Source: an uncultured Gemmatimonadales bacterium (lineage in GTDB: Bacteria; Gemmatimonadota; Gemmatimonadetes; Gemmatimonadales; GWC2-71-9). From it: a stretch of DNA of 64,000 bases. Location of the stretch: positions 1,070,133 to 1,134,132 of the forward strand of contig CAWFGP010000001.1 of the NCBI GenBank assembly GCA_963815515.1, in the 5' to 3' direction. The position numbers and the translations under genes are program-made. Each line of letters starts with the position of its first letter. Within the stretch, counting starts at the first letter, position 1. Under the pieces are notes generated by a model. The model had not been told where the DNA came from. It ran no database searches and saw only the letters and a program-made list of their open reading frames with translations. Of this stretch, positions 38,980 to 64,000 are shown piece by piece.

Positions 38980-40077
38980 ATGAGCCACCACCCCGTCACC
39001 GCCCCCAGTCGCCCGGTCAACCTGCTGGACCGCACGCCGGCGGCCGCCCGCGAGCTGCTGGCCGCCTGGGTGGCCGAGCACGGGCTGCCCGCCTACCGCG
39101 CCGGCCAGATCCTGCGCCGGCTCTGGCAGGCGCCGGTGCCGGCCTGGACCGACGCCACCGAGCTGCCGCTCGCCCTCCGGGCCGAGCTGGATGCCGCGTT
39201 TCCGCTCCTCCGGCTGACGGCGGAAGTGGAGCAGCTGTCGGCCGATGGCACCCGGAAGTTCCTCTGGCGCCTGGCGGACGGCGAGGCCATCGAATCGGTG
39301 CTGATCCCGTCGGGCGGCCGCCGGACACTCTGCCTCAGCTCCCAGGCCGGGTGCGCCCTCAAGTGCGCCTTCTGCGCCACGGGGCAGATGGGCTACCGGC
39401 GGAACCTCAGCGCCTTCGAGATCGCGGGCCAGGTGCGCGAGATCGCGCTCCGCGATCCGGCGGACTTGCCGACCAACGTCGTCTTCATGGGCATGGGAGA
39501 GCCGCTGCTCAACTGGCCGGCCGTCGACACCGCGCTGACCATCCTCAACGCACCCGACGGTCTCGGGATCGGCGCGCGCCATATCACTGTGTCGACCGTG
39601 GGCATCCTGCCGGGCATGCAGGCGTTGGCCCGGCGGCCGGAGCAGTTCCGGCTCGCCATCTCCCTGCATGCGACGACGTCGGCGCAGCGCCTGGGCATCA
39701 TGCCGATCGAGAAGAAATACGACCTGGAGGCGGTGCTCGCCGCGGCAGCGGCATTCCGGAAGCGCGTCACCTTCGAATACGTCATGATCGGCGGCGTGAA
39801 CGACCAGAACGCGGATGCCGACCGGCTGGCGCGGCTGGCGCGCCGGCTGGGCGCCCTGGTCAACATTCTGCCGCTGCATCCGGGCGGTGCGCCCGGTCTC
39901 ATCCCGACGACCAGCGAGCGGATCCGGGCGTTCGCGGGGCGGCTTCGGAATCAGGGCATCGAGGCCACGGTGCGGCGGAGCCGGGGGCTGGACATCGACG
40001 CGGCGTGCGGGCAGCTGCGGGTGGCTACGGAGCGGAAGCGGAGGGCTCGAGTGGGGGCGGCAGAGGGCGGCGGGTAA
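38980..40077 (+). CDS. rlmN: 23S rRNA m2A2503 methyltransferase RlmN
   Basis: CALKCAFC radical SAM motif, MGMGEPL, ISLH, IDAACGQL. Confidence 0.95.
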   Translation: MSHHPVTAPSRPVNLLDRTPAAARELLAAWVAEHGLPAYRAGQILRRLWQAPVPAWTDATELPLALRAELDAAFPLLRLTAEVEQLSADGTRKFLWRLADGEAIESVLIPSGGRRTLCLSSQAGCALKCAFCATGQMGYRRNLSAFEIAGQVREIALRDPADLPTNVVFMGMGEPLLNWPAVDTALTILNAPDGLGIGARHITVSTVGILPGMQALARRPEQFRLAISLHATTSAQRLGIMPIEKKYDLEAVLAAAAAFRKRVTFEYVMIGGVNDQNADADRLARLARRLGALVNILPLHPGGAPGLIPTTSERIRAFAGRLRNQGIEATVRRSRGLDIDAACGQLRVATERKRRARVGAAEGGG

Positions 40078-40112
40078 GCCCATCACCAGGAGATGGTCCG
40101 CAGGAGAGCTCC

Positions 40113-40324
40113 GTCATCCCGAGCGAAGCGAGGGACCATGCGCGGGAATGGCTCGGAACGCCCCCACCGCACCAGCCGGTTCACCACGGAACCACGGAAA
40201 ACACGGAAACAGCAACAGCGATACTGATGGTTTGCTCCGTACAGCTTCCGTGTTTCCGTGGTGAACTACTGGTCCTGCCTCGAGGCATTCCCGCGCAAGG
40301 TCCCTCGCTTCGCTCAGGGATGAC
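40113..40324. repeat. nested composite palindrome: REP-like outer arms around a TTCACCACGG...CCGTGGTGAA inner element
   Basis: Outer arms 40113-40155 and 40281-40324 (about 43 bp, 2 mismatches, 1 indel); inner arms 40179-40200 and 40245-40266. Confidence 0.9.
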
Positions 40325-40345
40325 TAGCGCTCTGTGCCGTCCCCC

Positions 40346-43117
40346 CTACCCCGTCGCCCCGAACCCCGTCGCGATACAGTTGATCGACAGCAGCAGCGCC
40401 GACAGCAGCTCTTCCTGCGACTTGTCGCTGCCGCTCTCCCGGAACCGGCGCAGCAGCTCGATCTGCTGGCGGGAGATCTGATTCAGAATCGGCATCCGGC
40501 GCGCGAGCTTGCGCCGGAACCTCGGGAACCGCTCGGCCAGCGCCGTTCCGCCGCTGATTCTCAAGACCGCCTCGACCGTCCGATGATACTCCTCCTCGAT
40601 CAGCGGGAGCACGGCCGCCCGCACCCGCTCCTCCGGTACCAGCTCCGCATACTCCCGCGCCATCGCCAGGTCGACATAGGACAGCGTCTTCTCGACCTCG
40701 TCCACGATGAGCCGGAAGAGGCGCGAGTCATTGAACATCCGCTGAATGAGCGCGGCCCCGCGCTGGCCCCGCACCTGGAGGAACGTCAGCACCCCGCTGC
40801 CGACCCCGAACCAGCCGGGCACGAAATGCCGGTTCTGCGACCAGGCGAACACCCACGGGATCGCGCGCAGGTCGCTGAGCGAGCGCGCCCCGAACCGCCG
40901 CGCCGGCCGGGAGCCGAGATTGAGGAAGGAAATCTCCTCGAGCGGGCTCGCCGTCTGGTAGTAGGGGAGCAGGTCGGGATGGTCGACCAGCTTCCGATAG
41001 GCGGCCTGGGCCGCGCCCGAGAGCGCCTCCATCGCCTCGTCGAACTCGGCCGTCGGCACCAGCGCCTCCTCGCGCTCGGACTTGAGCGTGTGCTCCACGA
41101 CGCTCGCTGCGAGCAGCTCGATCTGGTACTGTGCCGTGCCCCGGTTGGCGTACTTGAAGGAGACCACCTCGCCCTGTTCGGTGATGCGCATCCGCCCCTG
41201 GATCGAGCCGGCTGGCTGCGCGGCGATGGCGCGCCCGGTCGGCGCCCCGCCCCGGCTCACCGATCCACCGCGTCCGTGGAAGAAGGCGATGGGCACCCCC
41301 ATCTCCTTCCCCACCCGCGTGAGCTTGATCTGGGCCTTGTACAGCTCCCAGTTCGAGGTCAGGAAGCCGCCGTCCTTGTTCGAGTCCGAGTAGCCGATCA
41401 TCACTTCCTGCACCCCGCCCTGCGCGCGCACGCTGCGCTTGACCAGGGGCACGCCGAGGAGCTCGCGCATGATGGCCGGCGCGCGCTGCAGGTCCTCGAT
41501 GGTCTCGAACAGCGGCACGATCGGGAGGGTGCAGCTCTCGACGCCCGCCGTATCGCCGAACAGCCCGCCGACCTTGGCCAGCTGGTAGGCGCCGAGCACG
41601 TCGCTCACGCTCTGCGTCATGCTGAGCACGAACGCGCCGAAGGCCTCGCGGTCGATCTCCTCGCGCAGCCGGCGCACCAGCTGGAACATGCCGAAGGTTT
41701 CCGCGAACTCCGCCGACGGCACGGGAGCGGCCGCGCCCGGGGTGAGCGGCCGGGCCAGCTCGGCCGCCAGCCAGGCGCGCCAGGCCTCCGTGCCGGGCTC
41801 CGGCGCCTCGCCGGTGCCGCCGCCGATCCGCCACAGGTCGGCCAGCGCGGCGTTGAGCTTGGTGGTGTTCTCCCGGACGTCGAGCCGCACCGTGCTGAAG
41901 CGGAACGACTCGACCTCGCGGCGCACCGGACGGACCAGCGCGCTGGCCAGCTCGGGCCGGCCGGCCTCCACCAGCTCGTCCTCCATCAGCCTGAGGTCGG
42001 CCAGCAGCGCGTCGGCCGAAGCATAGCCCCCGGGATCGGGCCGCGTGTCGCCGCGCTCGGTGCGCTCGATCATCAGCTGGATGCGGCGGAGCATGCAGGC
42101 GAGGTACTGGCGGAACACCTCGCCCGGATTGCGGCTGGCGATCTCCTCGGCCTGTCCGGTCGCCGCCAGCTCGCGCTCGAGCGCCGCGCGGAAGCGGTCG
42201 GTGATCGGGACGGCCTTCTCGGTGATGCTGAGGGCGCGGACCAGCTCGTCGAGCCGGCGCCGGTAACGGCGAAGCCCCGTCAGCCGGTTCTCGAGCAGCG
42301 TGCCGTGGGTGACGTCATTGGTGACGAACGGATTGCCGTCCCGGTCGCCGCCGATCCACGAGCCGAACTGGAAGAACGGCGGCACCAGCCAGCGCTCGCC
42401 CGGATAGAACTGCGCCAGCACCCGCTCGACCTTCTCCAGCAGGTCGGGCACCGCCTCGAACAGGGTCTCGTTGAAGAAGTGCAGGCCCCAGAAGACCTCC
42501 TGGGGCACGGTCGGCTTCTGCAGGCGCAGCTCGCCCGTGAGCCAGAGGAGCTCGATCTCGTTTCGAAGCCCGTCGATGAGTCCCTGGCGCTCGCGCGGCG
42601 TCCACCGGGGCGACTCGAGGTCGACCAGCCGCCGGTAGATGCGCCGATGCTTCTCGAGCACCGTGACCCGTTTGGCTTCGGTGGGATGGGCCGTGATGAC
42701 CGGGCGGACACGCAGCTGGTCGAGCAGCGTCCGGATCTCGGACGCCGGCACCTTGGCGGCCGCCGCATCCGAGAACACCCGCGCGAACGTGCCTCGGAGG
42801 AGCTCGTACCCGCGCTCGGCCTCGATCTGCCGCCGGCGGCGCATGGCCGCGTTCTGCTCCGCGATGTTGAGCAGCTGGAACCAGATCCCCTGCACCTGGA
42901 GCGTGCGGGCCAGCAGCTCCGCGCTCAGCCCGTGCGGCGCCCGCTCGCCGCGCAACACCGGCTCGACCTCCGGATCGCGCTTCCGCACCAGGGTGAGCAT
43001 GAGCTCGCTCAGGAGCTCGAGCACCTCGTTGGCGTAGTGGGCCGCGCTGGCGGCCACGGGGTCGGGCGACTCGGGCAGCTCGGTGGCAGAGAACGGTTCC
43101 AGCGCCACCCCGCTCAC
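40346..43117 (-). CDS. ppc: phosphoenolpyruvate carboxylase
   Basis: VITAHPTE, SWIGGDRDGNP, VPLFET, QEVMIGYSDSNKDGG, FHGRGGSVSRGG, LRAIPWVFAW; GTGA overlap with the upstream gene. Confidence 0.96.
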   Translation of the reverse strand: MSGVALEPFSATELPESPDPVAASAAHYANEVLELLSELMLTLVRKRDPEVEPVLRGERAPHGLSAELLARTLQVQGIWFQLLNIAEQNAAMRRRRQIEAERGYELLRGTFARVFSDAAAAKVPASEIRTLLDQLRVRPVITAHPTEAKRVTVLEKHRRIYRRLVDLESPRWTPRERQGLIDGLRNEIELLWLTGELRLQKPTVPQEVFWGLHFFNETLFEAVPDLLEKVERVLAQFYPGERWLVPPFFQFGSWIGGDRDGNPFVTNDVTHGTLLENRLTGLRRYRRRLDELVRALSITEKAVPITDRFRAALERELAATGQAEEIASRNPGEVFRQYLACMLRRIQLMIERTERGDTRPDPGGYASADALLADLRLMEDELVEAGRPELASALVRPVRREVESFRFSTVRLDVRENTTKLNAALADLWRIGGGTGEAPEPGTEAWRAWLAAELARPLTPGAAAPVPSAEFAETFGMFQLVRRLREEIDREAFGAFVLSMTQSVSDVLGAYQLAKVGGLFGDTAGVESCTLPIVPLFETIEDLQRAPAIMRELLGVPLVKRSVRAQGGVQEVMIGYSDSNKDGGFLTSNWELYKAQIKLTRVGKEMGVPIAFFHGRGGSVSRGGAPTGRAIAAQPAGSIQGRMRITEQGEVVSFKYANRGTAQYQIELLAASVVEHTLKSEREEALVPTAEFDEAMEALSGAAQAAYRKLVDHPDLLPYYQTASPLEEISFLNLGSRPARRFGARSLSDLRAIPWVFAWSQNRHFVPGWFGVGSGVLTFLQVRGQRGAALIQRMFNDSRLFRLIVDEVEKTLSYVDLAMAREYAELVPEERVRAAVLPLIEEEYHRTVEAVLRISGGTALAERFPRFRRKLARRMPILNQISRQQIELLRRFRESGSDKSQEELLSALLLSINCIATGFGATG

Positions 43118-44088
43118 ACGACGCGATCCCGGAGCGGCTTTCCGCTGAAGAAGAGCTGGAGGTTCTCGAACGCCCGCAGGCCCATGGCCACGCGGGTCTC
43201 CTTGGTGGCGCTGCCGAGATGCGGGAGCAGGACGACGTTCTCCATGGCGATCAGCGCCGGCGTCACCTGCGGCTCCTTCTCGTACACGTCGAGCCCCGCG
43301 CCGGCGATCCGCCTGGACTGGAGCGCCTCCACCAGCGCCGCCTCGTCCACCACGTCGCCCCGCGCGGTGTTGATGAGGAACGCTTCGGGCCGCATCAGCG
43401 CCAGGCGCTCGCGGTTCATCAGGTGCCGGGTCTCGGGCGTGGCCGGACAGTGCAGCGAGACGAAGTGCGCCTCCCGCAGGACGTCCTCGAGGCTGTCCCG
43501 AGGCTCCGCGCCGAGCGCCGTGGCCACGTCGGGCGCGGGCGGGAAGGGATCGTGGAAGATCACCTTCATCCCGAACCCGTGATGGGCGCGCTGCGCCACC
43601 GCCCGGGCGATCCGGCCCATGCCGATCAACCCGAGCGTCTTGCCCGTGACGTGCGTGCCGAGCATGTGGGTGGGCCGCCAGCCGGTCCACTGCCCGGCCC
43701 GCAGATGGCGCTCGCCCTCGCCGGTGCGGCGGGCGGCCATGAGCAGGAGCGTCACCGCGAGATCGGCCGTCGCGTCGGTAAGCACGTCCGGCGTGTTGGA
43801 GACGACAATCCCGCGAGCCTTGGCGGCCTCGACGTCGATGTTGTTGAAGCCGACGCCGAAATTGGCCACCAGCTTCGCCCGGCGTGGCTCGGTGGCGAGC
43901 ACCTCGTCGGTCACCTTGTCGGTGACGGTGGTGAGCACGGCGTCCGCGTTTCGCAGGGCTTCCTTCAGTCCGTCCACCGTGAGCGGCCGGTCCTCCGGAT
44001 TGAGGCGCGCGTCGAACTCGCGGGCGAGCGCCTCGTGCACCGGCTCGGGGAGCCGGCGGGTCACCACCACGACCGGGCGCGCGCTCAC
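43114..44088 (-). CDS. hprA: D-glycerate dehydrogenase / hydroxypyruvate-glyoxylate reductase
   Basis: [41 protein letters not shown]; function inferred from operon context. Confidence 0.8.
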
Positions 44089-44996
44089 GTGCCGACCGTC
44101 ACGCGCTTCGACATGCCGCCCAGCACCTGCGCGGCGGTGCTGCCGAGATCGGCCGGGCTCGACACCACGGTGATCCCCGCGCCGCGCATGATCTCGACCT
44201 TCTCGGCCGCGCTCTCGCCGAAGGCGCGGATGATCGCGCCCGCATGGCCCATCCGGCGGCCTTTGGGGGCCGTGAGGCCGGCGACGTACCCGATCACCGG
44301 CTTCTTCATGTGCTCCTTGGCATGCAGCGCGGCCTCGGCTTCCTGCGGGCCGCCGATCTCGCCGATCATCATGACCGCTTCGGTTTCGGGGTCCTCCTCG
44401 AAGCGCTGCAGGATGTCCACGAACGAGCTGCCGTTGATCGGGTCGCCGCCGATGCCGACGCTGGTCGTGATGCCGATGCCGAGCGCCTTCATCTGCGACG
44501 CGGCCTCGTAGCCGAGGGTACCCGAGCGGGTCACCAGGCCCACGGTGCCGCGCTGGTAGATGTGTCCCGGCATGATGCCGATCATGGCCTTGCCGGGACT
44601 GATGATGCCGGCGCAGTTGGGACCGATGAGCGTGGAGCGCTTCTCCCTGGGATACCGGCGCTGGTAGCGCTTCACCGTGATCATGTCCTGCGCCGGGATG
44701 CCGTCCGTGATGGCGCAGATCAGCCGGATGCCCGCGTCGGCCGCCTCCATGATGGAGTCCGCGCAGAACGCCGCCGGGACGAAGATGATGGAGGCCTCGG
44801 CGCCGGCCTGCTTCACCGCTTCCTTGACCGTGTTGAACACCGGCAGGTCGAGATGCCGCTTGCCGCCTTTGCCGGGGGTCACACCGCCTACGAGGTTGGT
44901 GCCGTAGGCCCGCATCTCCTTGCTGTGGAACGTTCCTTTGTCCCCGGTGAAGCCCTGGACGATGACGCGGGTCCGTTCGTCGATGAGGATGCTCAT
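44085..44996 (-). CDS. mtkB: malate--CoA ligase alpha subunit (SucD-like)
   Basis: [36 protein letters not shown]; coupled to mtkA. Confidence 0.88.
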
Positions 44997-46186
44997 GGCT
45001 TTCCATTCCCGGCCGTGCTGCCCGAGGCCTTGAGGACGGCCACGACCTTCTCGGCCGCCTCGGTGAGGGTATCCGCCGTGGCCAGCTCGAGCCCGCTCTC
45101 CCGCAGGATCCGCCGGCCCTCCTCGACATTGGTGCCGGCCAGCCGCACCACCAGCGGGACCGTGGGTTTGAGCTCCTTGACGGCGTTCACCACGCCCTGG
45201 GCGACCCAGTCGCAGCGGTTGATGCCGGCGAAGATGTTGACCAGGATCGCGCGCACCTTGGGATCGGCGAGGACCAGCCGGAAGGCATTGCAGACCTTCT
45301 CGGGCGAAGCGCCACCGCCCACGTCGAGGAAGTTGGCCGGCGAGCTCCCGGCGTGCTTGATGAGATCCATCGTGCCCATCGCCAGCCCGGCGCCGTTCAC
45401 GATGCAGCCGATCTCGCCGTCGAGCGCGACGTAGTTGATCCCGTACTCCGCCGCCTGCGACTCCCGGGGATCCTCCTCGGCGTAGTCCCTGAGCTCGCTC
45501 ACGTTGGGCCGGCGGAAGAGCGCGTTGTCGTCGAAGGTCATCTTGCAGTCGAGCGCCAGCAGCTGGCCGTCGGTCGTGGCCACCAGCGGGTTGATCTCCA
45601 CCATGGTGGCGTCGAGGTCGCGGAAGGCCCGGTAGCAGCCGAGCAGCGTCGTCACCGCCCGGGTCACCTGCGCCGCGTCGAGCCCCAGCGCGAACGCGAT
45701 CTCGCGCGCCTGGAACGCGGTGAGCCCCACCGCGGGCTCGACCGTCGAGCGGATGATCGCCTCGGGGGACTTCTCCGAGATCTCCTCGATCTCCATGCCG
45801 CCCTGCGCGGAGGCGACGATCATCACGCGCTCGCTCTTCCGGTCGAGCACGAAGCCGAGATAGATCTCGCGCTCGATGGGGACCGCCGCCTCCACATAGA
45901 GCCGGTGAACGGTGCGGCCCTCGGGACCGGTCTGATGGGTGACGAGGCGCCTACCCAGGAGCGCCTTGGATGCCGTCCGCACTTCGTCCTCGTTCGAGCA
46001 GAGCTTGATGCCACCGGCCTTGCCGCGCGCGCCGGAGTGGATCTGCGCCTTCACGGCCCAGCGGACGCCGCCGATCTCGGAGGCGCGATAGACGGCCTGC
46101 TCCGGGCTGTACGCCACCCCGCCCCGCGGGATCGCGACGCCGAAGCCGGCGAGCAGCTCTTTGGCCTGGTATTCGTGGATGTCCAC
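44993..46186 (-). CDS. mtkA: malate--CoA ligase beta subunit
   Basis: [38 protein letters not shown]; [11 protein letters not shown] as recalled for MtkA (SucC has NIFGGIxRCD); next to mcl. Confidence 0.88.
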
Positions 46187-46223
46187 GCTCAGCCTCCGTC
46201 GACTTCGTGATGCCGGTGAATTA

Positions 46224-46290
46224 CGTCATCCTGAGCGCAGCGAAGGAGCCATGACCAGAGGCATGCCTCCTTCGCTCCGCTCAGAATGAC
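46224..46290. repeat. CGTC-tagged REP-like palindrome
   Basis: GTCATCCTGAGCGCAGCGAAGGAG...CTCCTTCGCTCCGCTCAGAATGAC, 24-bp arms with 2 mismatches. Confidence 0.9.
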
Positions 46291-46305
46291 ACGAGCGATC
46301 CAAGC

Positions 46306-47271
46306 CTATTGCGCTCCGACGACCGTCTTCCCGCTCTGACCGTCGATCGCCGCCGCCATGTTCACCACGTTCTGCGCCATCCGCGCCGACGCCGCATCGA
46401 TCATCCGCCCGTCGAGCTGCGCTGCGCCGCGGCCTTCGCGCGCCGCGTCCTCCAGCGCCGCCAGGATCCGCCTGGCCCGGTCCACCTCCGCGGGCGGCGG
46501 GCTGAACACCTCGTTGGCGAGCGCGATCTGCGACGGGTGGATGGCCCACTTGCCCTCGACCCCGAGCGCGGCGGCGCGCCGCGCGGCGAGCCGGTAGCCC
46601 TCCGGATCCTTGAAATCGCCGAACGGACCGTCGATCGGCCGGAGACCGTAGGCCCGGCACGCCACGATCATGCGCGAGAGCGCCGCGTGCCACTGGTCGC
46701 CCGGATAGTCGGGGTTGAGGCCGCCGATCACGACGGTACGGGCCCGGCAGCTCGCCGCGTAGTCCGCCACGCCGAAGTGCATCGCCTCGAGGCGGCGGCT
46801 GGATTGCGCGATCGCCTCGACGTTCGCCATGCCGAGCGCCGTCTCGATCAGCACGTCGATCCCCAGGCGGTGCGGGATCCCCTTGGCCTCCTCGATCTGG
46901 GAGACCATGGCGTCGACCATGTAGACGTCCGCCGGGACGCCCACCTTGGGAATCAGAATGGTATCCAGCCGGTGGCCGGCCTGCTCCACCACGTCGACCA
47001 CGTCCCGGTACATGTAATGGGTGTCGATGCCGTTGATGCGCACCGAGATCGTCTTGCCGCGCCCGCGCCAGTCGAGCTCGAGCAGTGCCTGGATGACGTT
47101 GGTCCGGGCCCGCTCCTTGTCGCCCGGCGCGACCGCGTCCTCGAGATCGAGGAAGATGTAGTCGGCCTCGCCGTCGAGGGCCTTCTGGAACATCGCCGGG
47201 TTCGAGCCCGGCACCGCCAGCTCGCTGCGCTGCAGCCGCTGGCGGGCGGGCTCGAAGCGCGTGTGGCTCAT
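46306..47271 (-). CDS. mcl: malyl-CoA lyase
   Basis: RSELAVPGSNP, FLDLEDAVAP, RINGIDTHYMYRDVVD, IETALGMANVEAIA, CRAYGLRPIDGPFGD, GKWAIHPSQI. Confidence 0.92.
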   Translation of the reverse strand: MSHTRFEPARQRLQRSELAVPGSNPAMFQKALDGEADYIFLDLEDAVAPGDKERARTNVIQALLELDWRGRGKTISVRINGIDTHYMYRDVVDVVEQAGHRLDTILIPKVGVPADVYMVDAMVSQIEEAKGIPHRLGIDVLIETALGMANVEAIAQSSRRLEAMHFGVADYAASCRARTVVIGGLNPDYPGDQWHAALSRMIVACRAYGLRPIDGPFGDFKDPEGYRLAARRAAALGVEGKWAIHPSQIALANEVFSPPPAEVDRARRILAALEDAAREGRGAAQLDGRMIDAASARMAQNVVNMAAAIDGQSGKTVVGAQ

Positions 47272-48524
47272 CGAGCGGCGCCCGCGGTGGCCTTCTCCTT
47301 CGCGGCCGCCGGCTGGGCGTCGGGCGCGCGCGGCGGCAGCTCTCGCGACTCGAGGGGCTTGGCGGTGCTCCGCCAGTATTCCTCCGCCGCGCCGACGCCG
47401 CTGCCCGCCGTGAGCTTCACGCCCGCGTCGCGCATCGCCATTTCGGCGCCGGCGATGCCGCCGAGGAGCATGCATTCGTTCAGGTCGCCCAGGTGGCCGA
47501 TGCGGAACAGCCTCCCCGCCATGCGCGCGAGCCCCGCGCCGAGCGCCAGGTTGTAGCGGCGGTAGGCGATGTCGATCACTTCGGCGGCGTTGATGCCGGC
47601 CGGCACCATGATGGCGCTGACCGTGTCCGAATACCACTTGGGCTGCCGGGCGCAGAGCTCGAGGCCCCATGCCTTGACCGCCGCGCGGGTGCCCTCGGCG
47701 AGCCGGTGGTGCCGGGCGAGCACGTTCTCCAGCCCTTCCTCGAAGATCACGTTCAGCGCTTCCCGGAGTCCGTACAGCAGCGGCAGCGACGGCGTGTAGG
47801 GGAAGTAGCCGGTGGCGTTGGCCTTCTTCATGTCGCCGAAGTCGAAGAACACCCGCGGCAGCTTGGCGGAGTCATAGAGTGCCGCGGCCTTCGGGCTCAC
47901 CGCCACGATGCCCAGGCCGGCCGGGAGCATGAGCCCCTTCTGCGAGCCGGTCACGGCGCAGTCGACGCCCCATTCATCCATGCGGAAGTCGATGCTGCCG
48001 ATCGAGCTCACCCCGTCCACCATCAGCAGCGCGGGATGCCTGGTGTCGTTCAGCGCCTTCCGGATCCCGGCGACGTCGCTGGTGACGCCGGTGGCGGTCT
48101 CGTTGTGGGTGAAGAGCACCGCCTTGATCTCGTGCGCCTTGTCGGCCGCGAGCGCCTCCTGGTACCGCTCGATGGGAGCGCCCTCGCCCCACTCGGTGTC
48201 GAGCACGTCCACCCGGAGCCCCAGCCGCTGGGCCATGTCGATCCAGAGGTGGCTGAACATGCCGAAGCGCGCCGCGAGGACCCGGTCGCCCGGACTCAGG
48301 GTGTTGGAGAGCGAGGCCTCCCAGGCGCCCGTCCCGCTCGCCGGGAAGATGTATGCCTGGCCCGTGGTGGTCTTGAAGATCTTCTTGAGGTCCTGCAGCA
48401 CCGGGGCCGCGAGCTTCGGGAAATCGGACGACCGGTGATCCTCCATCGCGACATGCATGGCGCGGAGAATACGGTCGGGCGTATTCGTGGGACCCGGGAC
48501 GAAGAGGAAGTTGCGGCCGGCCAT
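47268..48524 (-). CDS. sgaA: serine--glyoxylate aminotransferase (class V PLP)
   Basis: GRNFLFVPGPTN..EDHRS, SGTGAWEA, HNETATGV, DGVSS, GSQKG, YFPYTP, FRIGHLGDLN. Confidence 0.92.
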   Translation of the reverse strand: MAGRNFLFVPGPTNTPDRILRAMHVAMEDHRSSDFPKLAAPVLQDLKKIFKTTTGQAYIFPASGTGAWEASLSNTLSPGDRVLAARFGMFSHLWIDMAQRLGLRVDVLDTEWGEGAPIERYQEALAADKAHEIKAVLFTHNETATGVTSDVAGIRKALNDTRHPALLMVDGVSSIGSIDFRMDEWGVDCAVTGSQKGLMLPAGLGIVAVSPKAAALYDSAKLPRVFFDFGDMKKANATGYFPYTPSLPLLYGLREALNVIFEEGLENVLARHHRLAEGTRAAVKAWGLELCARQPKWYSDTVSAIMVPAGINAAEVIDIAYRRYNLALGAGLARMAGRLFRIGHLGDLNECMLLGGIAGAEMAMRDAGVKLTAGSGVGAAEEYWRSTAKPLESRELPPRAPDAQPAAAKEKATAGAAR

Positions 48525-48646
48525 GCGGGGACCCTCGCGACTGAAAGAAAAGGACTGGGCGGAGACGAGACGCCTCCGCCGGATCTGACTACATTAGCAG
48601 GCGCCGCGGCCCGGGCCACCCACTGTATTTTTATACGTCCAGCCCC

Positions 48647-48676
48647 ATGTATAGCACTTTGTGCTTTTTTTCACAA
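48647..48676 (-). promoter_or_regulatory. putative sga promoter overlapped by a Rex-like operator
   Basis: TTGTGCTTTTTTTCACAA at 48659-48676; the minus strand reads TTGTGA-17 nt-TATACA with TG at the extended -10 position. Confidence 0.6.
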
Positions 48677-48686
48677 GGCTGAGATC

Positions 48687-50030
48687 TTGTCCCTCCCGAC
48701 CGCCCATCCCCACGCGAATGCACCCGTCCGCGAGCTCCTGACGGAGCTCTATCGCGTTGCCACAGCAGCCGTTGACCCGGCCCCGGCCGTGGCCAGCCGG
48801 CTCGACCGGCTCCAGCGCGAGCCCGGACGCCGCCGCTGGATCCTGGCCCTCGGCAAGGCGGCTATCCCGATGGCCAGGGCCGCGGTGGAGACCCTCGCGG
48901 GATGGGGAGACTCGCCGGCCGGCGGCGTCGTGGTGGCCCCGGAGCTCCAGCGGGCACTGCATCCAAGGCTCCCCGTCGTCGCCGGTGACCATCCGGAGCC
49001 CGGCCCCGGGTCGCTGGCGGCCGCGGAGGCGCTGGGCCGGGCGGCCGCCGCGGTCGCGCCGGAGGACGAGGTCTGGGTGCTGCTTTCGGGCGGCGCCTCG
49101 AGCCTGCTCGCTGCGCCCGTCGAGGGCGTGTCGCCCCAGGAGCTGACCACCCTCTACCGCCTGCTGCTCGGCTCCGGCCTCGACATCACCGCCATGAACC
49201 GGATCCGGAAGCGCTTCTCCCGCTGGGCGGCGGGCCGACTGGCTCAGGCGCTGGCGCCCGCCCGGGTGCGGGTCTTCGTCGTCTCCGACGTCATCGGCGA
49301 CGATCTGCCCTCCATCGGTTCCGGCCCCTGCGTCCCCGACGCCACCACCGGCGCCGAGGTCCGGCGAATGCTGGAGGACGCCGGGCTCTGGGATCGTATC
49401 CCCGCCGCCGCGCGGCGCGTCGTCATGGCGTCGGAGTCGGGGGAAACGGCGGAAACGCCAAAGCCGGGAGATGCGGCCTTCGCGCGGGTGACCCTCGAGC
49501 TGATCGCCAGTAACCGGTTGGCCCTCGAAGCTGCGGCCAAGCGTGCGGCAGAGTTGGGCCTCGCTCCCATCGTGGCGGAGACGCCGCTCGCCGGGGAGGC
49601 GTCGGCAACCGGGGCGAGTGTAGCCGCTTCTATTCTACAAAATTGCGGCCGGTTGGAGATCCCGCAACCAGCCGCACCGAGGCGTTGCTACATCTGGGGC
49701 GGCGAGACGACCGTCACCCTGGGCGACGCGCCCCCGGGGCTCGGCGGCCGTTGCCAGGAGCTGGCGTTGGCGGCGGCACGGGTGCTGGCCGGCGCGCGGC
49801 CGGGTATCGCGCTGCTTGCCGCGGGCACCGATGGCCGCGATGGACCGACCGACGCCGCCGGCGCGATCGTCGACGGCGGCACCTGGCGCGCGGCAGCCGC
49901 CGCGGGGCGGGATCCTGCGCGCGATCTGGCCGCGCATGACGCCTATCGGGCGCTCGACGCGGCGGGGGCGCTGCTCAAGGTGGGGCTGACGGGGACGAAC
50001 GTGATGGATGTGGTGATCGGGGTGGGGTAG
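48687..50030 (+). CDS. gck: glycerate 2-kinase (TtuD/MOFRL, DUF4147)
   Basis: LGKAAIPMA, GDHPEP, LLSGGASSL, SDVIGDD..IGSGP, GGETTV, GGRCQELAL, GTDGRDG, TGTNVMD; TTG start assumed. Confidence 0.9.
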   Translation: MSLPTAHPHANAPVRELLTELYRVATAAVDPAPAVASRLDRLQREPGRRRWILALGKAAIPMARAAVETLAGWGDSPAGGVVVAPELQRALHPRLPVVAGDHPEPGPGSLAAAEALGRAAAAVAPEDEVWVLLSGGASSLLAAPVEGVSPQELTTLYRLLLGSGLDITAMNRIRKRFSRWAAGRLAQALAPARVRVFVVSDVIGDDLPSIGSGPCVPDATTGAEVRRMLEDAGLWDRIPAAARRVVMASESGETAETPKPGDAAFARVTLELIASNRLALEAAAKRAAELGLAPIVAETPLAGEASATGASVAASILQNCGRLEIPQPAAPRRCYIWGGETTVTLGDAPPGLGGRCQELALAAARVLAGARPGIALLAAGTDGRDGPTDAAGAIVDGGTWRAAAAAGRDPARDLAAHDAYRALDAAGALLKVGLTGTNVMDVVIGVG

Positions 50031-50046
50031 GCGCTACAATCGGGGC

Positions 50047-50246
50047 CGTCATCTCGAGCGGAGTGAGGGACCTTGCCCGGGAATGCCTCGAGCCATTCCC
50101 CGCACAAGCCATTCACCACGGAAACACGGAAGGCACGGAAAACAGCAACAGCAAAGTCTAGTGGTTTGCTGAATGCGCCCTTCGGTTTCCTCCGTGCGGC
50201 CGTGCAGCTTCCGTGTCTTCCGTGTCTTCTGGGTTTCCGTGGTGAA
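50047..50246. repeat. second composite element: one REP-like arm plus TTCACCACGG...CCGTGGTGAA inner palindrome
   Basis: CGTCATCTCGAGCGGAGTGAGGGACCTTGCCCGGGAATGCCTCG matches the 40113 arm; inner element 50112-50246 shares ACAGCAACAGC and TGGTTTGCT with the 40179-40266 copy. Confidence 0.88.
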
Positions 50247-50266
50247 ACCGGTGACACGACCGCCCG

Positions 50267-50692
50267 CTACGGCCTGAGCGGCAGCCGGGGCCGCCAGTCG
50301 CTCCCGATCAACACGCTGACATCCACGCGCCGAAGTGTGTCCGGCTGGATCACCACCCGCCCGACCCCGAGCGCTTCGGCCACGTCCCGCCCCTGCCCCG
50401 GATCGCCCCGCCGCACGTAGATCCGCGTGCTGTCCGAGATCGGCCCCGTCCCGAAGAAGACGACGTCGAGCCCTTGCTGGCGGAGCGCGCGCGTCGCGAT
50501 CCGGGCAAGGCCCGGCCGCCGCGTGCCGTTCAGCACTTCCACCCGGATCCGGCGCCCAGGCGACGGAATGGGATAGGCGTGTCCGGCGATGTGCTCGCGC
50601 TCGGGGGGCAGCATGAGCGCCACCGCCCCCGCGATGGCCACCGCGAGCGCGGCGATCAGCGCGAGCCGGAGGGCGCGACGAGGCTGTTCCAG
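50267..50692 (-). CDS. LytR C-terminal domain membrane protein
   Basis: One TM, then IRVEVLNGTRRPGLA..DVSVLIGSDW; start uncertain. Confidence 0.8.
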   Translation of the reverse strand: MEQPRRALRLALIAALAVAIAGAVALMLPPEREHIAGHAYPIPSPGRRIRVEVLNGTRRPGLARIATRALRQQGLDVVFFGTGPISDSTRIYVRRGDPGQGRDVAEALGVGRVVIQPDTLRRVDVSVLIGSDWRPRLPLRP

Positions 50693-51213
50693 AAACGCAC
50701 CGTGGGGTCGATGAGCGGCCGCCCCGAGCCGATGAGGCGCGCCAGCCGGTCGCCGGCCACCGCGAGCAGGACGCCGGCGGAATCGTGGGGATATCGATCG
50801 GCCAGCTCGGCCCGCCACTCGCGCCTGAAGGCGCGCCCGGGCTCGAGGTAGTCCGCGCAGTACAGCACCCGGCCGACCATGTCCCAGTCCGCCCAGCCCA
50901 CCGAATGGTAGCGCACGGCGTCGAGGATCCCCCGGTCGGTCTCACCCTCCGCCGCCGCCCGCGCCGCGCTGGCCGGTCCGTGCCGAACGGACCCCGGCCA
51001 CGGCGCGTCCGCGGCCCAGCGCTCGAGCGTGGCCGGGGCCGCGTCGCGAAACGCGTCGTGCAGCCACGCCGCCCGGAGCCACCGCTCCCGCTCGGCCGCC
51101 GAGATGCGCATCCGCTCGGCCCAGCCGTCGGCGAGCGCCACGACCCGCTCGATGTGCGCCGCCCGCTCGGGCGAGACCTCCGCCCACGAGGGCAACCCGC
51201 TCTGACCGGTCAC
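50656..51213 (-). CDS. HD-domain hydrolase (YqeK-like)
   Basis: RAAHIERV, AAWLHDA, HGPASA, AVRYHS, YCADYLEPGR. Confidence 0.85.
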   Translation of the reverse strand: MTGQSGLPSWAEVSPERAAHIERVVALADGWAERMRISAAERERWLRAAWLHDAFRDAAPATLERWAADAPWPGSVRHGPASAARAAAEGETDRGILDAVRYHSVGWADWDMVGRVLYCADYLEPGRAFRREWRAELADRYPHDSAGVLLAVAGDRLARLIGSGRPLIDPTVRFWNSLVAPSGSR

Positions 51214-52067
51214 CCGTCGAGGCCCTGGCCGAGGATGATGTTGTCGATCAGCCGCGTCCGCCCGAGGCGGGCGGCCAGCGCCACTACCGTGTCGGCGCCG
51301 ACCGTCTCTACCGGCGCGAGCGTGGCGGGCTCCGCGATGGCGACGTACTCCACCTGCACCGCGGGCTCGGCGGCGAGCACGCGGCGCATGGTGGCCTGCA
51401 GCGCTGCCGCATCGCGCTCGCCCGACCGGAACGCATCGTGGGCGGCACGGAGCGCGACGCTCAACACCACCGCCCGCGTCCGGTGGTCGGCGTCGAGATA
51501 GGCGTTCCGGCTGCTGAGCGCGAGGCCGTCGGGCTCCCGCACGGTCGGCACGACGACGATCTCCAACCGCCAGTCCAGGTCGCGCACCATCTGCCGCACC
51601 AGCGTCGCCTGCTGGATGTCCTTCCGACCGAAGCACGCCACGTCCGGCTCGACCAGATGGAAGAGCTTCGCGACCACCGTCAGCACACCTTCGAAGTGGC
51701 CGGGCCGCGCCGCACCCTCCCACCGGGCCGCCGTCGCGCCGGGCACCACGCGGATCTCCGACCCGGGGGGATACATGACACGCTCGCTCGGCACGAACAG
51801 CACATCGGTCCCGCGCGCCTCGGCCAGGGCGCGGTCGCGCGGCAGGTCGCGAGGATAGCGAGCGAGATCCTCGGTCGGCCCGAACTGCAGCGGGTTGACG
51901 AAAATGCTCATGATGACGCGATCGGCTCGCCGGCGCGCCTCGTCGACCAGGCGGAGGTGCCCTTCGTGGAGGAAGCCCATCGTGGGCACGAGACCGATGC
52001 GCCGGCCTGCCGCGCGCTCGTCGCGCACCCAGCGGCGCAGGTCGGCAATGGAGCTGAGCTCGATCAT
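51210..52067 (-). CDS. panC: pantoate--beta-alanine ligase
   Basis: VPTMGFLHEGH, FVNPLQF, RPGHFEGV, GLALSSRN, RLIDN. Confidence 0.96.
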   Translation of the reverse strand: MIELSSIADLRRWVRDERAAGRRIGLVPTMGFLHEGHLRLVDEARRRADRVIMSIFVNPLQFGPTEDLARYPRDLPRDRALAEARGTDVLFVPSERVMYPPGSEIRVVPGATAARWEGAARPGHFEGVLTVVAKLFHLVEPDVACFGRKDIQQATLVRQMVRDLDWRLEIVVVPTVREPDGLALSSRNAYLDADHRTRAVVLSVALRAAHDAFRSGERDAAALQATMRRVLAAEPAVQVEYVAIAEPATLAPVETVGADTVVALAARLGRTRLIDNIILGQGLDG

Positions 52068-52086
52068 GGACTCGGAGGCAGGAGGA

Positions 52087-52899
52087 TCAGTCGAAGCTGT
52101 GCTCCGGCCCGGGGTAGGTGCCATCGCGCACCTCGGCGGCATAGGACCGGACGGCGGTGCGTACCGCCTCCCCCAGCTCGGCGTAGCGCTTGAGGAACTT
52201 GGGATTGAACATCTCGTTGAGGCCGAGCATGTCGTGCAGCACCAGCACCTGCCCGTCGCAGTGCACTCCGGCGCCGATCCCGATCGTGGGAATCGTGAGC
52301 GCGGCGGTGATCCGCTTGGCGAGCGCCGCCGGCAGCAGCTCGAGGACGATGGCGCAGGCCCCCGCCTCCTCGAGCGCACGCGCGTCGGCCAGGAGCCGCT
52401 CAGCGGCCGAGGCCTCTCTCCCCTGCACCCGGTAGCCGCCGAGCGCATGCACGGACTGGGGGGTGAGGCCGAGATGCCCGATCACGGGAATGCCGCGGTC
52501 CACCAGCGCCCGGACCGTCTCCGCCATCGGCCGGCCACCCTCGAGCTTCACACCGTGGGCGCCGCTCTCCTGCAGCACGCGGCCGGCGTTCCGGATCGCG
52601 TCGGTGGGTGACACCTGATAGGTGAGGAACGGGAGATCCACGAAGACCAGCGCGCGGCGCGCGCCCCGCCGAACGGAGGCGGCGTGGTAGATCATCTGGT
52701 CCAGCGTGGCGCTGAGGGTCGTCTCCTGCCCCGCCAGCACCTGATTGACCGAGTCGCCGACCAGCAGGACGTCGACCTCCGCCTGTTCCAGCAGCCGCGC
52801 GAACGCGGCGTCGTAGCAGGTGAGCATCACGATCCGGCGTCCCGCCGCCTTCATCGCGAGCAGATCGGGCACCGTCATCGGCCGTGCGTCAGCGTTCAT
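52087..52899 (-). CDS. panB: 3-methyl-2-oxobutanoate hydroxymethyltransferase
   Basis: MLTCYD, LLVGDS, VKLEGG, GHLGLTPQ, IGIGAG..DGQVLV. Confidence 0.96.
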   Translation of the reverse strand: MNADARPMTVPDLLAMKAAGRRIVMLTCYDAAFARLLEQAEVDVLLVGDSVNQVLAGQETTLSATLDQMIYHAASVRRGARRALVFVDLPFLTYQVSPTDAIRNAGRVLQESGAHGVKLEGGRPMAETVRALVDRGIPVIGHLGLTPQSVHALGGYRVQGREASAAERLLADARALEEAGACAIVLELLPAALAKRITAALTIPTIGIGAGVHCDGQVLVLHDMLGLNEMFNPKFLKRYAELGEAVRTAVRSYAAEVRDGTYPGPEHSFD

Positions 52900-53308
52900 G
52901 GGCTTGCAGCTCCGCCAGCTCTCGCAGCCAGAAGTCGCGGTTGGGCAGCTCGGGATGGGGAATGATAAGGTCGGCCTCCGTCACGCGCCGCTGCCCATAG
53001 CGCACGATGTCCACATCGATGGTCCGAGGGCCCCATCGCTCGCCGCGGACCCGGCCCCGCGCGCGCTCAATCTCGTGGCAGGCCTCGAGCAGCTCACGCG
53101 GGGTGAGCCGCGTCTCGAGCAGGACCATCTGGTTGAGGTACGGCGGCTGCGTCATGCCGGCGAGCGGGGCCGTCTCCTCGACGGCCGACGCAGCCACGAG
53201 CTTGGTGTCGGGCAGCTTCGCCAGCGCGTCGCGGGCGGCAGCGAGGTGTCCGGCCCGGTCGCCGAGATTGCTGCCGAGCGCCAGGTACGCGCGTTCGGCG
53301 GCGGCCAT
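52889..53308 (-). CDS. folK: 2-amino-4-hydroxy-6-hydroxymethyldihydropteridine diphosphokinase
   Basis: YLALGSNLG, YLNQ, WGPRTIDVDI, IPHP. Confidence 0.95.
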   Translation of the reverse strand: MAAAERAYLALGSNLGDRAGHLAAARDALAKLPDTKLVAASAVEETAPLAGMTQPPYLNQMVLLETRLTPRELLEACHEIERARGRVRGERWGPRTIDVDIVRYGQRRVTEADLIIPHPELPNRDFWLRELAELQAHER

Positions 53309-53310
53309 GA

Positions 53311-55398: not shown

Positions 55399-56160
55399 GC
55401 TGCACCCTCCCCGGCGGCTTCATCCAGGGCCCGGCGCAATTCGCCGAGGAACCGACCGGCGGCGGCCGGACCTTCGCGGCCGAGCGGTCGACGAGCGCAC
55501 TGCCGACCACGACGCCGTCGGCCAGTCCGGCGCAGCGTCCGGCCTGCGCCGGCGTGGAGATCCCGAAGCCGACGGCGATCGGCAGTGGCGTCGCCCGCCG
55601 GACCCGGGCGATCTACTCGCCCAGGCCGCTGCCGCCAGTGAGGCGCTGGCGCCGGTGACTCCGAGCCGGGCGACCAGATAGAGAAACCCTGCGCGCCCCG
55701 CGACCGGGCGGCGAGCCGGGGACCGGTCGTCGGGGCGACCAGGCGGATCAGGTCGAGGGGGCTCGCCCGGACCGACTGCTCGAGCTGGCATCGCTCCCCG
55801 CCGGGAGATCGGTGAGCAGGAGCCCGCCACGCCGAGCTCGCCCGCGTCGCGCAGGAAACGCTCGAGTCCATAGTGCAGGACCGGGTTGAGGTAGCTGAAG
55901 ACGACCACCGGCCAGGCCAACCGGGCTCGTCGATCAACTCGAGAGTGCCGGCCAGGGTCATCCCCTGCCCAGGGCGTCGAAGGTCGAGCGCTGGATCGTG
56001 GGGCCGTCGGCGAGGGGATCGCTGAAGGCCACGCCGACCTCGATGATGTCGGCCACCGCGCCGCCACGCGGAGGGCGTCGAGGCTGGCCGCGACGGTCGG
56101 ATGACCGGCGGTGAGGTAGGGATCAGGGCGGTCCGTTCCGGCGCGGAGAACCGACCATGC
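55395..56160 (-). CDS. trpA: tryptophan synthase alpha chain (frameshifted, probable sequencing errors)
   Basis: Fragments [52 protein letters not shown] in different frames; ends approximate. Confidence 0.85.
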
Positions 56161-56176
56161 CGGGGTCAGCCTGGAG

Positions 56177-57647: not shown

Positions 57648-57649
57648 GT

Positions 57650-60630: not shown

Positions 60631-60990
60631 GCTGCTGGCCAACGACCACCTCCAGAAAACGCGCGATTTTGTTCGGGTGCCCTTGATGCCCGGCAGGCGC
60701 TCCACCCCTGAACTTACATCCACGATGTACGGTCCAACGAGGGCCACGGCCGCTGCGACGGTCGCGGGCGAGAGCCCGCCGGCGAGCACCATCGCGCGCG
60801 CGGTGCGAGGCGCGCCCGGGCCTCACCCGCGAGCACCAGGTCCAACGCGACGCCGCGGTTCCCGCCCATGACGTGCGCCACCCGTCAGCTTTGACCAGGA
60901 CGGCGTCCGCGTCCATCGCGGCCTGGGACCGGCCGCCTCCGCAAGCCGGCACGGCCGCGCCGCCGCACGCCGTACACAACGCGAAGGCGC
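60617..60990 (-). CDS. trpF: phosphoribosylanthranilate isomerase, 3' part (degraded, truncated)
   Basis: VLAGGLSPATV..VDVSSGVE..PGIK, directly upstream of trpB. Confidence 0.75.
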
Positions 60991-60999
60991 GCCAGGGGG

Positions 61000-63900: not shown

Positions 63901-64000
63901 GCCCATAGCTACACTCCCTGGTGCTCCATTCCCTCCTCAACTTTTCCCTACAACAGAATTTTTACTGTGCGGGAAATATTCACCCCATATCTCACCACCC
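61000..64000. other. foreign, eukaryote-like / AT-rich DNA joined to the bacterial sequence
   Basis: Abrupt loss of high GC after G13 (60995-61007) and C9 tracts; extremely AT-rich at about 62000-63100; no bacterial gene signals. Confidence 0.85.
63620..64000. repeat. degenerate tandem repeat with about 176-bp period
   Basis: AACTTCTATTAAA at 63705 and 63881, each followed by CCTCCTCAACTTT, GAATTTT and CCCATATCTCACC. Confidence 0.75.

Follow-up and report, generated by a model that had tools for sequence, protein, structure and literature searches.

A serine-cycle gene cluster in Gemmatimonadales

Positions 40346-50030 of the window (the whole 64,000-nucleotide stretch of DNA that was analysed) are a genuine, tightly packed serine-cycle gene set of a soil-type Gemmatimonadales bacterium, and its six dedicated serine-cycle enzymes, phosphoenolpyruvate carboxylase (Ppc) among them, are encoded as one unit that probably serves a route from methanol to biomass. 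The serine cycle is the biomass-building route of many methanol-eating bacteria. As had been claimed from the letters alone, sga, mcl, mtkA, mtkB, hpr and ppc form a co-oriented, mostly overlapping run, all on the minus strand, with gck divergent on the plus strand, and all seven genes were found where that prediction had placed them:

40346-43117, minus strand: ppc, phosphoenolpyruvate carboxylase, 923 aa (Pfam PEPcase, 813 bits)
43114-44088, minus strand: hpr, predicted D-2-hydroxyacid dehydrogenase (hydroxypyruvate/glyoxylate reductase type), 324 aa (Pfam 2-Hacid_dh_C, 210 bits)
44085-44996, minus strand: mtkB, malate--CoA ligase alpha subunit, 303 aa (CoA_binding/Ligase_CoA)
44993-46186, minus strand: mtkA, malate--CoA ligase beta subunit, 397 aa (NF010647)
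46306-47271, minus strand: mcl, predicted L-malyl-CoA lyase, 321 aa (Pfam HpcH_HpaI; PDB 5ugr)
47268-48524, minus strand: sga, predicted serine--glyoxylate aminotransferase, 418 aa (class-V aminotransferase; PDB 6pk1)
48558-48580, minus strand: terminator-like site in the leader of sga: a hairpin rich in G+C that lies 34-56 nt ahead of the start codon, then a T-rich run
48660-48675, no strand assigned: palindrome TGTGC-N6-TCACA, read from the sequence of the spacer between the divergent gck and sga
48687-50030, plus strand: gck, predicted glycerate 2-kinase (DUF4147/MOFRL family), 447 aa (Pfam DUF4147 and MOFRL)

Four junctions of the minus-strand run (ppc/hpr, hpr/mtkB, mtkB/mtkA and mcl/sga) are 4-bp overlaps, mtkB being translationally coupled to mtkA, and the only gapped junction is that of 119 bp between mtkA and mcl. 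The ppc start was picked by third-position GC and is a GTG lying in the overlap with the hpr stop; the length of gck is counted from a TTG start that is uncertain. The divergent spacer between sga and gck is 162 bp long and has no gene inside. Assignment of the host to Gemmatimonadota, also predicted, was confirmed by the syntenic flanks aspS, rlmN, yqeK and panC and by the best MtkA match (93%), found in Gemmatimonadales MAGs.

Assignment of the encoded enzymes

The original prediction held that the ligase is of the MtkA type and probably not the SucCD of the TCA cycle. Indeed, MtkA scored 697 bits against the malate--CoA ligase beta model NF010647 (cut-off 604) and 554.5 bits against the SucC model, and the second ligase beta copy of the genome scored 388 bits on the malate--CoA ligase model. 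The 11-residue MtkA-type motif quoted in the prediction was present in MtkA; the genome's SucC reads NIFGGITRTDD there. A search for a separate sucCD and an MtkA versus SucC tree had been proposed as checks. The former located such a pair at C1:937625-939606, its beta and alpha subunits 45% and 52% identical to MtkAB, which is thus not the only ligase of the genome. In the latter, the window MtkA grouped with MtkA of Gemmatimonadota and of methylotrophic Proteobacteria, within a starred clade of 36 rows (the window, 22 Gemmatimonadota and 13 Pseudomonadota, including Methylibium, Methyloversatilis, Methylocella and Methylovirgula), and the genome's SucC was separated from the MtkA clade by a very long branch. 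Outside the phylum, the closest MtkA come from genera known as methylotrophs; close homologues also occur in many non-methylotrophs, such as roseobacters.

It is extremely improbable that the ligase is instead the succinyl-CoA synthetase of the TCA cycle and the cluster a chance neighbourhood. MtkB did match only succinate--CoA ligase alpha models (436 bits), an NCBIfam profile search returning no match to an MtkB-specific model, and MtkA also passes the SucC cut-off of 370 bits; but the higher score on the malate model, the presence of two ligase loci and the long branch between them led us to reject the SucCD identity. In addition, the cluster layout recurs in 19 of the 80 loci compared, and the seven-gene layout was found again in named Gemmatimonadales MAGs and is therefore not a chance arrangement.

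Ppc supplies the phosphoenolpyruvate (PEP) carboxylase of the serine-cycle set by its Pfam match, its score against NCBIfam NF000584 being 776.6 bits, below the cut-off of 815. The best PDB match of Mcl was the malyl-CoA/beta-methylmalyl-CoA lyase 5ugr (426.5 bits; 4l9y, 320.9 bits), and no NCBIfam model reached its cut-off in the profile search; Mcl is predicted to be the L-malyl-CoA lyase of the set. Sga matched the serine--glyoxylate aminotransferase 6pk1 at 479.5 bits, the next PDB match scoring 164 bits, and would provide that activity, its preference for serine or aspartate as donor not being readable from sequence. The beta-hydroxyaspartate cycle (BhcABCD) was considered and rejected at the level of the locus: Sga scored 621 bits against the NCBIfam BhcA model, below the cut-off of 650, and the neighbours of sga are mcl and gck, not bhcBCD.

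For Hpr, the best NCBIfam matches were the glyoxylate reductase and GhrB models, both below cut-off, and the PDB matches were glyoxylate reductases (268 bits) and the D-glycerate dehydrogenase 1gdh (225.6 bits). Gck matched Pfam DUF4147 (199.5 bits) and MOFRL (117.5 bits), PDB 1x3l (223.7 bits) and 2b8n, a 'glycerate kinase, putative' (210.8 bits), and fell below the cut-offs of the NCBIfam archaeal glycerate 2-kinase models. Both proteins are in the right superfamilies. All their curated equivalog scores are below cut-off, and the names Hpr and Gck rest on context; like that of Mcl, they are predictions by homology below the curated NCBIfam cut-offs.

C1 modules and the proposed pathway

A genome search for C1-oxidation and tetrahydrofolate (H4F) genes, likewise proposed with the prediction, was productive. 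Two XoxF-type PQQ dehydrogenases were found (655 and 630 bits, above the methanol/ethanol family cut-off), whose best PDB matches are the lanthanide XoxF structures 6oc5 (700 bits) and 4mae (709 bits); both read D-Y-D where 6oc5 and 4mae read D-F-D and D-Y-D. Also present were pqqC (308 bits), an H4MPT formaldehyde-oxidation island at C2:182-204 kb (fae, an Mpt_N dehydrogenase, mch, fhcB and two copies each of fhcA, fhcC and fhcD), ftfL, an fch-like FTCD_C gene, folD and glyA. By their family assignments, these genes would supply methylene-H4F from a C1 substrate through methanol/formaldehyde oxidation, FtfL, Fch/FolD and GlyA. The claim that the organism assimilates C1 units was supported by this gene set and by the co-occurrence of MtkA with Fae across the phylum (counts below), except for methane as a substrate: pmoA was not found in a genome search run without a positive control.

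We infer the substrates and the direction of flux as follows. Methanol would be oxidised in the periplasm by the lanthanide-type XoxF, and the H4MPT route (Fae, Mpt_N dehydrogenase, Mch and Fhc) would take the resulting formaldehyde on to formate. Formate would enter the H4F pool via FtfL and then Fch/FolD, and GlyA would join methylene-H4F to glycine to form serine, to be converted to hydroxypyruvate by Sga, to glycerate by Hpr and to 2-phosphoglycerate by Gck. After enolase, Ppc would carboxylate PEP to oxaloacetate; after malate dehydrogenase, MtkAB would convert malate to malyl-CoA, which Mcl would cleave to acetyl-CoA and glyoxylate, the amino acceptor of Sga.

Regeneration of glyoxylate

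A serine cycle without acetyl-CoA assimilation cannot give net C3/C4 compounds. Ccr was not found in the genome by profile search (best score 114 bits, cut-off 378), nor was a canonical isocitrate lyase (ICL); the genome has one short, divergent ICL-family gene, far below the ICL cut-offs, and a malate synthase A (727 bits). The short gene is frameshifted in the present assembly by a single additional base within a run of G, and the assembly has clear error-rich stretches; an intact orthologue scored 174 bits against the ICL cut-off of 562. The protein is about 377 aa long, retains SGW, DxEAGFGG, ARTD and NxSPS, and has NRTCGH in place of the KKCGH of ICL, motifs to which we presumptively assign their roles in the ICL family.

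Close orthologues of this gene occur in 28 of the 201 Gemmatimonadota genomes, and 25 of these 28 carry MtkA. In nine other MtkA genomes the sole ICL is a longer one (35-41% identical), and three lack both kinds. Each of the 11 proteobacterial genomes sharing the operon order has canonical ICL, and none (0/11) has Ccr. Assimilation of acetyl-CoA, we infer, follows an ICL-type ('icl+') route through the short ICL-family protein and malate synthase A. We only tentatively suggest, as somewhat short of an even chance, that this protein replaced canonical ICL in one Gemmatimonadales branch and so closes an 'icl+' serine cycle.

Conservation and origin of the operon

The six genes are intact and their order is kept in 12 Gemmatimonadota loci with conserved flanks. 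Among the 80 loci, a divergent gck beside sga was seen only in 15, all Gemmatimonadota, and the order mtkAB-ppc-mcl in 7, all Beta- or Gammaproteobacteria by label. In six MtkA-negative relatives the same chromosomal site holds hpr and gck as a pair, while sga, mcl and mtkAB are absent from it; the glycerate branch thus exists independently in the family. The operon is closest to proteobacterial operons and occupies this native hpr-gck site, and in the Hpr tree the Hpr of the gammaproteobacterial operons was sister to the Gemmatimonadota cluster Hpr (support 86). It would seem that the operon moved as a block, by acquisition from Proteobacteria or by exchange with them. Linked to the ICL replacement suggested above, the six-gene operon may have come from or been exchanged with Gammaproteobacteria and been inserted at the native site between rlmN and yqeK.

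Alternative roles of the cluster

The cluster could serve the assimilation of glyoxylate, glycolate or glycine (C2) rather than growth on C1 compounds. Sga would then aminate glyoxylate, the glycine cleavage system and GlyA would yield serine, Hpr and Gck would lead to 2-phosphoglycerate, and MtkAB with Mcl would balance malate against glyoxylate and acetyl-CoA. The lone hpr-gck pair of the MtkA-negative relatives, the malate synthase A, the close MtkA homologues in bacteria not known as methylotrophs and the near match of Sga to BhcA, an aspartate--glyoxylate enzyme, are all compatible with such a role. We consider it unlikely, however, given the full methanol-to-formate and H4F gene set of the genome, the methylotroph genera that hold the nearest MtkA outside Gemmatimonadota, and the distribution of Fae. 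MtkA was above cut-off in 37 of the 201 Gemmatimonadota genomes (a tally including the unpublished G057, G097, G156 and G181), from 12 genera, and Fae was present in 43. Counted over related, not independent genomes, Fae occurred in 35 of the 37 MtkA genomes versus 8 of the 164 without MtkA; the exceptions are two MtkA genomes without Fae and eight Fae genomes without full MtkA. Within the neighbourhood of the cluster, no glycolate or glyoxylate supply genes were found.

Less probable still, and quite improbable, is a scenario with no working cycle, in which MtkAB and Mcl chiefly catalyse condensation or offer an ATP-linked substitute for malate synthase, and their co-location with sga, hpr and ppc is left over from the transferred operon. 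The apparent acquisition or exchange of the operon as a block and the frameshift in the ICL-family gene would fit such a history, but the six genes are intact, translationally coupled and kept in order between conserved flanks, the genome already has malate synthase A, and the frameshift is a single base in a G run of an assembly with error-rich stretches. A methanol-to-biomass role through the serine cycle is our preferred reading.

Comparison with known systems

The serine pathway in Gemmatimonadota and the gene order sga-mcl-ligase-hpr are both already published. Methylotrophy genes in uncultured Gemmatimonadota MAGs, mentioned in the original prediction, were indeed reported in 2016 by Butterfield et al., whose available text describes XoxF, the whole H4MPT route and a 'malate-intermediated serine' pathway in Gemmatimonadetes MAGs, with XoxF more abundant than any other protein of a soil proteome (PMC5103831). 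According to the text available for Voutsinos et al. 2024, most XoxF MAGs have the entire serine pathway (PMC10875860). The present genome shares with these MAGs the phylum and the inferred physiology of XoxF, PQQ synthesis, H4MPT and a serine pathway through malate; the accessible parts of both papers state that the pathway is present and describe the surroundings of xoxF/H4MPT, but do not give the arrangement of a serine-cycle operon, which their supplements may show. The complete, conserved serine-cycle operon, together with the XoxF and H4MPT genes, adds weight to the argument, already made in 2016, that part of the phylum assimilates methanol carbon besides oxidising methanol.

The same enzyme set and pathway are found in Methylobacterium extorquens, and 5ugr is the best PDB match of Mcl; the gene order differs, and mtdA and fch lie outside the window cluster, elsewhere in the genome. 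M. extorquens assimilates acetyl-CoA by the ethylmalonyl-CoA pathway, whereas no Ccr was found in the window's genome. Gemmatimonadota are abundant in soils, where methanol is of interest because plants release carbon in this form in large amounts.

The original prediction knew of no characterised operon with such an order. That is outdated: one is published for Aminobacter sp. (Alphaproteobacteria), and the available text gives NyZ550 operon IV as sga, mcl, mtkB, mtkA, hpr, gck (PMC13199381). Going by that text, genes and order sga-mcl-ligase pair-hpr(-ppc) are alike, but gck is divergent and upstream in the window and last in the NyZ550 operon, ppc is inside the window operon, the host is of another phylum, and the inducer there is methylamines, whereas the window's genome points to methanol. 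Loci of Aminobacter, Pseudaminobacter and Mesorhizobium share the operon order at 58-77% protein identity, and their genomes have ICL but lack Ccr. The uncultured gammaproteobacterial MAG loci L043, L045, L047, L066, L083, L093 and L103 have the identical six-gene order (52-81% protein identity); unlike the window, they have no divergent gck beside sga, and they have canonical ICL above cut-off (G204 among them is unpublished).

Candidate regulatory elements

In contrast to the SecR-regulated clusters of types I-IV, as outlined in the accessible text of PMC13199381, no SecR-type regulator gene lies beside sga or elsewhere adjoining the cluster. A SecR candidate from a Roseovarius locus (L077), chosen by position only, gave in tblastn only a 44-residue helix-turn-helix match, at C5:445220. 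The hairpin in the sga leader had no Rfam match; its stem of 7 pairs is conserved across 10 Gemmatimonadales loci, three of the pairs showing changes on both sides in at least one sequence. The spacer palindrome, which we take to resemble CRP/FNR sites, is kept in the nearest relatives, the L031 version being TGTGA-N6-TCACA.

Gene content of the cluster

The window has a G+C content of ~70% and therefore contains many spurious long open reading frames. Frames were selected by third-position G+C and then checked with family scans, and the seven genes recovered in this way agreed exactly with the positions that the original prediction had assigned to them, confirming the cluster itself.

Genes of the serine-cycle cluster (window coordinates, strand, identity)
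ppc, 40346-43117, minus strand: full-length PEP carboxylase (Pfam, 813 bits)
hpr, 43114-44088, minus strand: D-2-hydroxyacid dehydrogenase, nearest to glyoxylate/hydroxypyruvate reductases (D-glycerate dehydrogenase 1gdh, 225.6 bits)
mtkB, 44085-44996, minus strand: matches succinate--CoA ligase alpha models only
mtkA, 44993-46186, minus strand: NCBI malate--CoA ligase beta model, 697 bits (cut-off 604); SucC model, 554.5 bits
mcl, 46306-47271, minus strand: malyl-CoA lyases are the best matches of known structure (5ugr, 426.5 bits; 4l9y, 320.9 bits)
sga, 47268-48524, minus strand: best solved relative is serine--glyoxylate aminotransferase 6pk1 (479.5 bits; next match 164 bits)
gck, 48687-50030, plus strand: DUF4147/MOFRL protein resembling glycerate kinases of known structure (1x3l and 2b8n)

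Four gene junctions of the cluster had a 4-bp overlap, mtkA and mcl were separated by a gap of 119 bp, and sga and gck diverged from a spacer of 162 bp. The ligase had been proposed to be malate--CoA ligase rather than the succinyl-CoA synthetase (SucCD) of the TCA cycle. Indeed, MtkA exceeded the cut-off of the malate--CoA ligase model, and a separate sucCD pair was located elsewhere on the same contig (C1:937625-939606), with 45% and 52% identity to MtkA and MtkB, respectively; its SucC scored 388 bits on the MtkA model. The motif site on which the proposal was based carries [11 protein letters not shown] in MtkA, compared with NIFGGITRTDD in the SucC of the genome. On the BhcA model, Sga scored 621 bits, just below the cut-off of 650, and the adjoining genes are not bhc genes.

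Host and assembly

Among species-representative genomes, MtkA was matched best by MAGs titled Gemmatimonadales or Gemmatimonadaceae, with identities from 93% down to ~70%. The flanks of the cluster were syntenic in those MAGs (57-87% identity): aspS and rlmN bordered the cluster on one side, and the other held a 124-aa gene, yqeK, panC and a gene for a chemoreceptor. These matches and the housekeeping flanks, aspS included, bear out the predicted Gemmatimonadota host. The genome comprises 4.64 Mb in 6 contigs and is 97% complete by tool estimate.

Window positions 48898-60919 duplicate C4:1-11911 of another contig. Identity of the duplicate was 99.5-100% up to ~53.9 kb and beyond that fell to 79-84%, with numerous indels. 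Past a G run at ~60995-61008, the rest of the window consists of AT-rich, foreign-looking DNA (G+C 0.26). On these grounds the end of contig C1 (window 54400-64000) is an unpolished, chimeric assembly artefact. The serine-cycle cluster lies within the good part of the assembly.

One-carbon genes elsewhere in the genome

The original prediction depended on genes for one-carbon oxidation and tetrahydrofolate (H4F) transfer in the rest of the genome, and these were present. Two of the four PQQ dehydrogenases exceeded the methanol/ethanol family cut-off and matched structures of lanthanide-dependent XoxF best (6oc5, 700 bits; 4mae, 709 bits). Both carry D-Y-D where the XoxF proteins of 6oc5 and 4mae have D-F-D and D-Y-D, the second Asp of this site being a lanthanide ligand. 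A pqqC match at C3:424505-425194 (308 bits) contained one internal TGA, attributable to a sequencing error or to disruption of the gene.

An H4MPT island at C2:182000-204100 encodes fae, an Mpt_N dehydrogenase and mch, together with two copies each of fhcA, fhcC and fhcD, fhcB with a weaker second copy, two MptN-like ligases and one H4MPT-linked protein. One XoxF-type gene (C2:167458-169182) lies ~13 kb from this island. The H4F branch was completed by ftfL (852 bits), an FTCD_C/fch-like gene, folD and one glyA. The genes around ftfL (ribF, secDF, tatD, a Rid-family member and murI) were all of the housekeeping type, indicating that there is no second one-carbon island at that site. A search of the genome for pmoA/amoA (PF02461) gave no match, a result that does not demonstrate absence since the control genomes gave none either.

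The distribution of the ligase was compared with that of Fae in 201 Gemmatimonadota genomes including the source genome (G000), in tallies that include the unpublished genomes G057, G097, G156 and G181. MtkA was above cut-off in 37 genomes of 12 genera, all from a single order and, within it, from the two families f1 and f2, and in 16 of 16 genomes of the genus to which the window belongs. Fae was present in 43 genomes, comprising 35 of the 37 with MtkA versus 8 of the 164 others; in G128, one of these eight, MtkA was interrupted at a contig end. Kinship among the genomes makes them non-independent, so this co-occurrence is to be read as a pattern rather than as a statistic. The pattern points to one-carbon use rather than a general role in glyoxylate metabolism, and the serine-cycle interpretation of the cluster is supported.

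Glyoxylate regeneration and a short isocitrate lyase-family protein

The ethylmalonyl-CoA route was not found in the genome, the best match to its marker Ccr scoring 114 bits versus a cut-off of 378. Malate synthase A was present (727 bits), with neighbours uninformative on function. The sole isocitrate lyase (ICL)-family locus of the genome (C4:291282-292413, equivalent to L022:3282-4413) was split over two frames by one additional base in a G run, relative to the orthologue from a congener, which is intact at 377 aa (L106:1501-2634). The error-rich stretches of the assembly make an assembly error plausible; a pseudogene is an equally likely explanation. The neighbouring genes (rmlA, an oxidoreductase and hflX) were likewise uninformative on function.

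The intact short protein scored 174 bits on the ICL equivalog model (cut-off 562) and 87 bits on methylisocitrate lyase, and aligned to solved ICLs over almost its full length. It retains SGW, DxEAGFGG, ARTD and NxSPS, with NRTCGH replacing KKCGH. In public annotation it appears as 'isocitrate lyase/PEP mutase family protein' or 'isocitrate lyase', and its nearest clusters in the atlas were from Gemmatimonadota and Chloroflexota. Close orthologues (at least 66% identity over the matched part) occurred in 28 of the 201 genomes, 25 of which also had MtkA; nine further MtkA genomes had only a longer ICL (35-41% identical), and three had neither. Canonical ICL was above cut-off in all 11 proteobacterial genomes sharing the operon order, and Ccr was found in none of 13 genomes searched (G204 is unpublished). 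The most economical reading would be an ICL-type serine cycle in which the divergent short ICL takes the role of the canonical enzyme in this branch. No description of the short ICL was found in a search of the literature on Gemmatimonadota methylotrophs and isocitrate lyase.

Gene order and origin of the operon

Gene order was compared over the best 80 MtkA loci. The full order sga-mcl-mtkA-mtkB-hpr-ppc was found in 19 of these (12 from Gemmatimonadota and 7 from Gammaproteobacteria MAGs), sga-mcl-mtkAB in 30, including Aminobacter, Pseudaminobacter, Mesorhizobium and Rhizobium, and mtkAB-ppc-mcl in 7. A divergent gck adjoining sga occurred at 15 of the best 80 loci, in Gemmatimonadota only.

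The rlmN site was inspected in 20 relatives. In nine (G046, G126, G039, G114, G141, G016, G059, G040 and, less clearly, G067/G010), the 124-aa gene or yqeK came immediately after rlmN. Six relatives negative for MtkA (G190, G021, G161, G023, G107 and G038; loci L119 and L122-L126) had only a divergent hpr-gck pair between rlmN and yqeK. The full cluster occupied the site in G164, G197, G045 and G122, and that of G114 was sited elsewhere. In a quick tree, Hpr of full clusters formed one group (95*), sister to Hpr of Gammaproteobacteria MAGs (86), and Hpr of the hpr-gck pairs was separate (90). The MtkA tree was rooted on the SucC of this genome; there, Gemmatimonadota shared a starred clade with the genera Methylibium, Methyloversatilis, Methylocella and Methylovirgula, and this clade was nested among Gammaproteobacteria MAGs. 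These placements would fit exchange of the operon with Proteobacteria, in either direction, and its integration beside a native gck. The trees were quick constructions that had one long outgroup at most and covered the best 80 loci only.

The cluster is already known in kind, in the phylum and in gene order. PMC13199381 sorts these serine-cycle cluster layouts into classes, with a cluster of strain NyZ550 among those described. Gemmatimonadetes MAGs with XoxF, PQQ synthesis, a complete H4MPT route and a malate-type serine pathway were reported in PMC5103831, and PMC10875860 adds further MAGs that combine XoxF with 'the entire serine pathway'. A 2026 preprint questions a proposed Gemmatimonadota methanotroph, partly for want of sga and hprA; unlike that candidate, G000 has both. 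No description of the operon in Gemmatimonadota was found in a search of the literature on the phylum and malyl-CoA lyase. The remaining points of interest are only the short ICL-family protein and regulation.

Putative regulatory elements of the sga-gck spacer

No SecR-like gene was found near the cluster, and a sigma-70 promoter scan of 39900-50400 returned 0 sites. The sga-gck spacer had no Rfam match even with E relaxed to 1, and at gathering scores no Rfam family was recognised anywhere in the window. Two candidate elements in the spacer are offered as leads only. A palindrome, TGTGC-N6-TCACA, at 48660-48675 was kept in the nearest relatives and was a perfect TGTGA-N6-TCACA in the related locus L031; it presumably resembles a CRP/FNR-type site. 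In the sga leader, a G+C-rich hairpin (48558-48580, minus strand) precedes a T-rich run. Consensus folding gave no structure over all 17 loci and a structure from the 10 alignable loci only. In 10 Gemmatimonadales loci the stem was kept with compensatory changes, and the hairpin may act in attenuation or stabilise the 5' end of the transcript.
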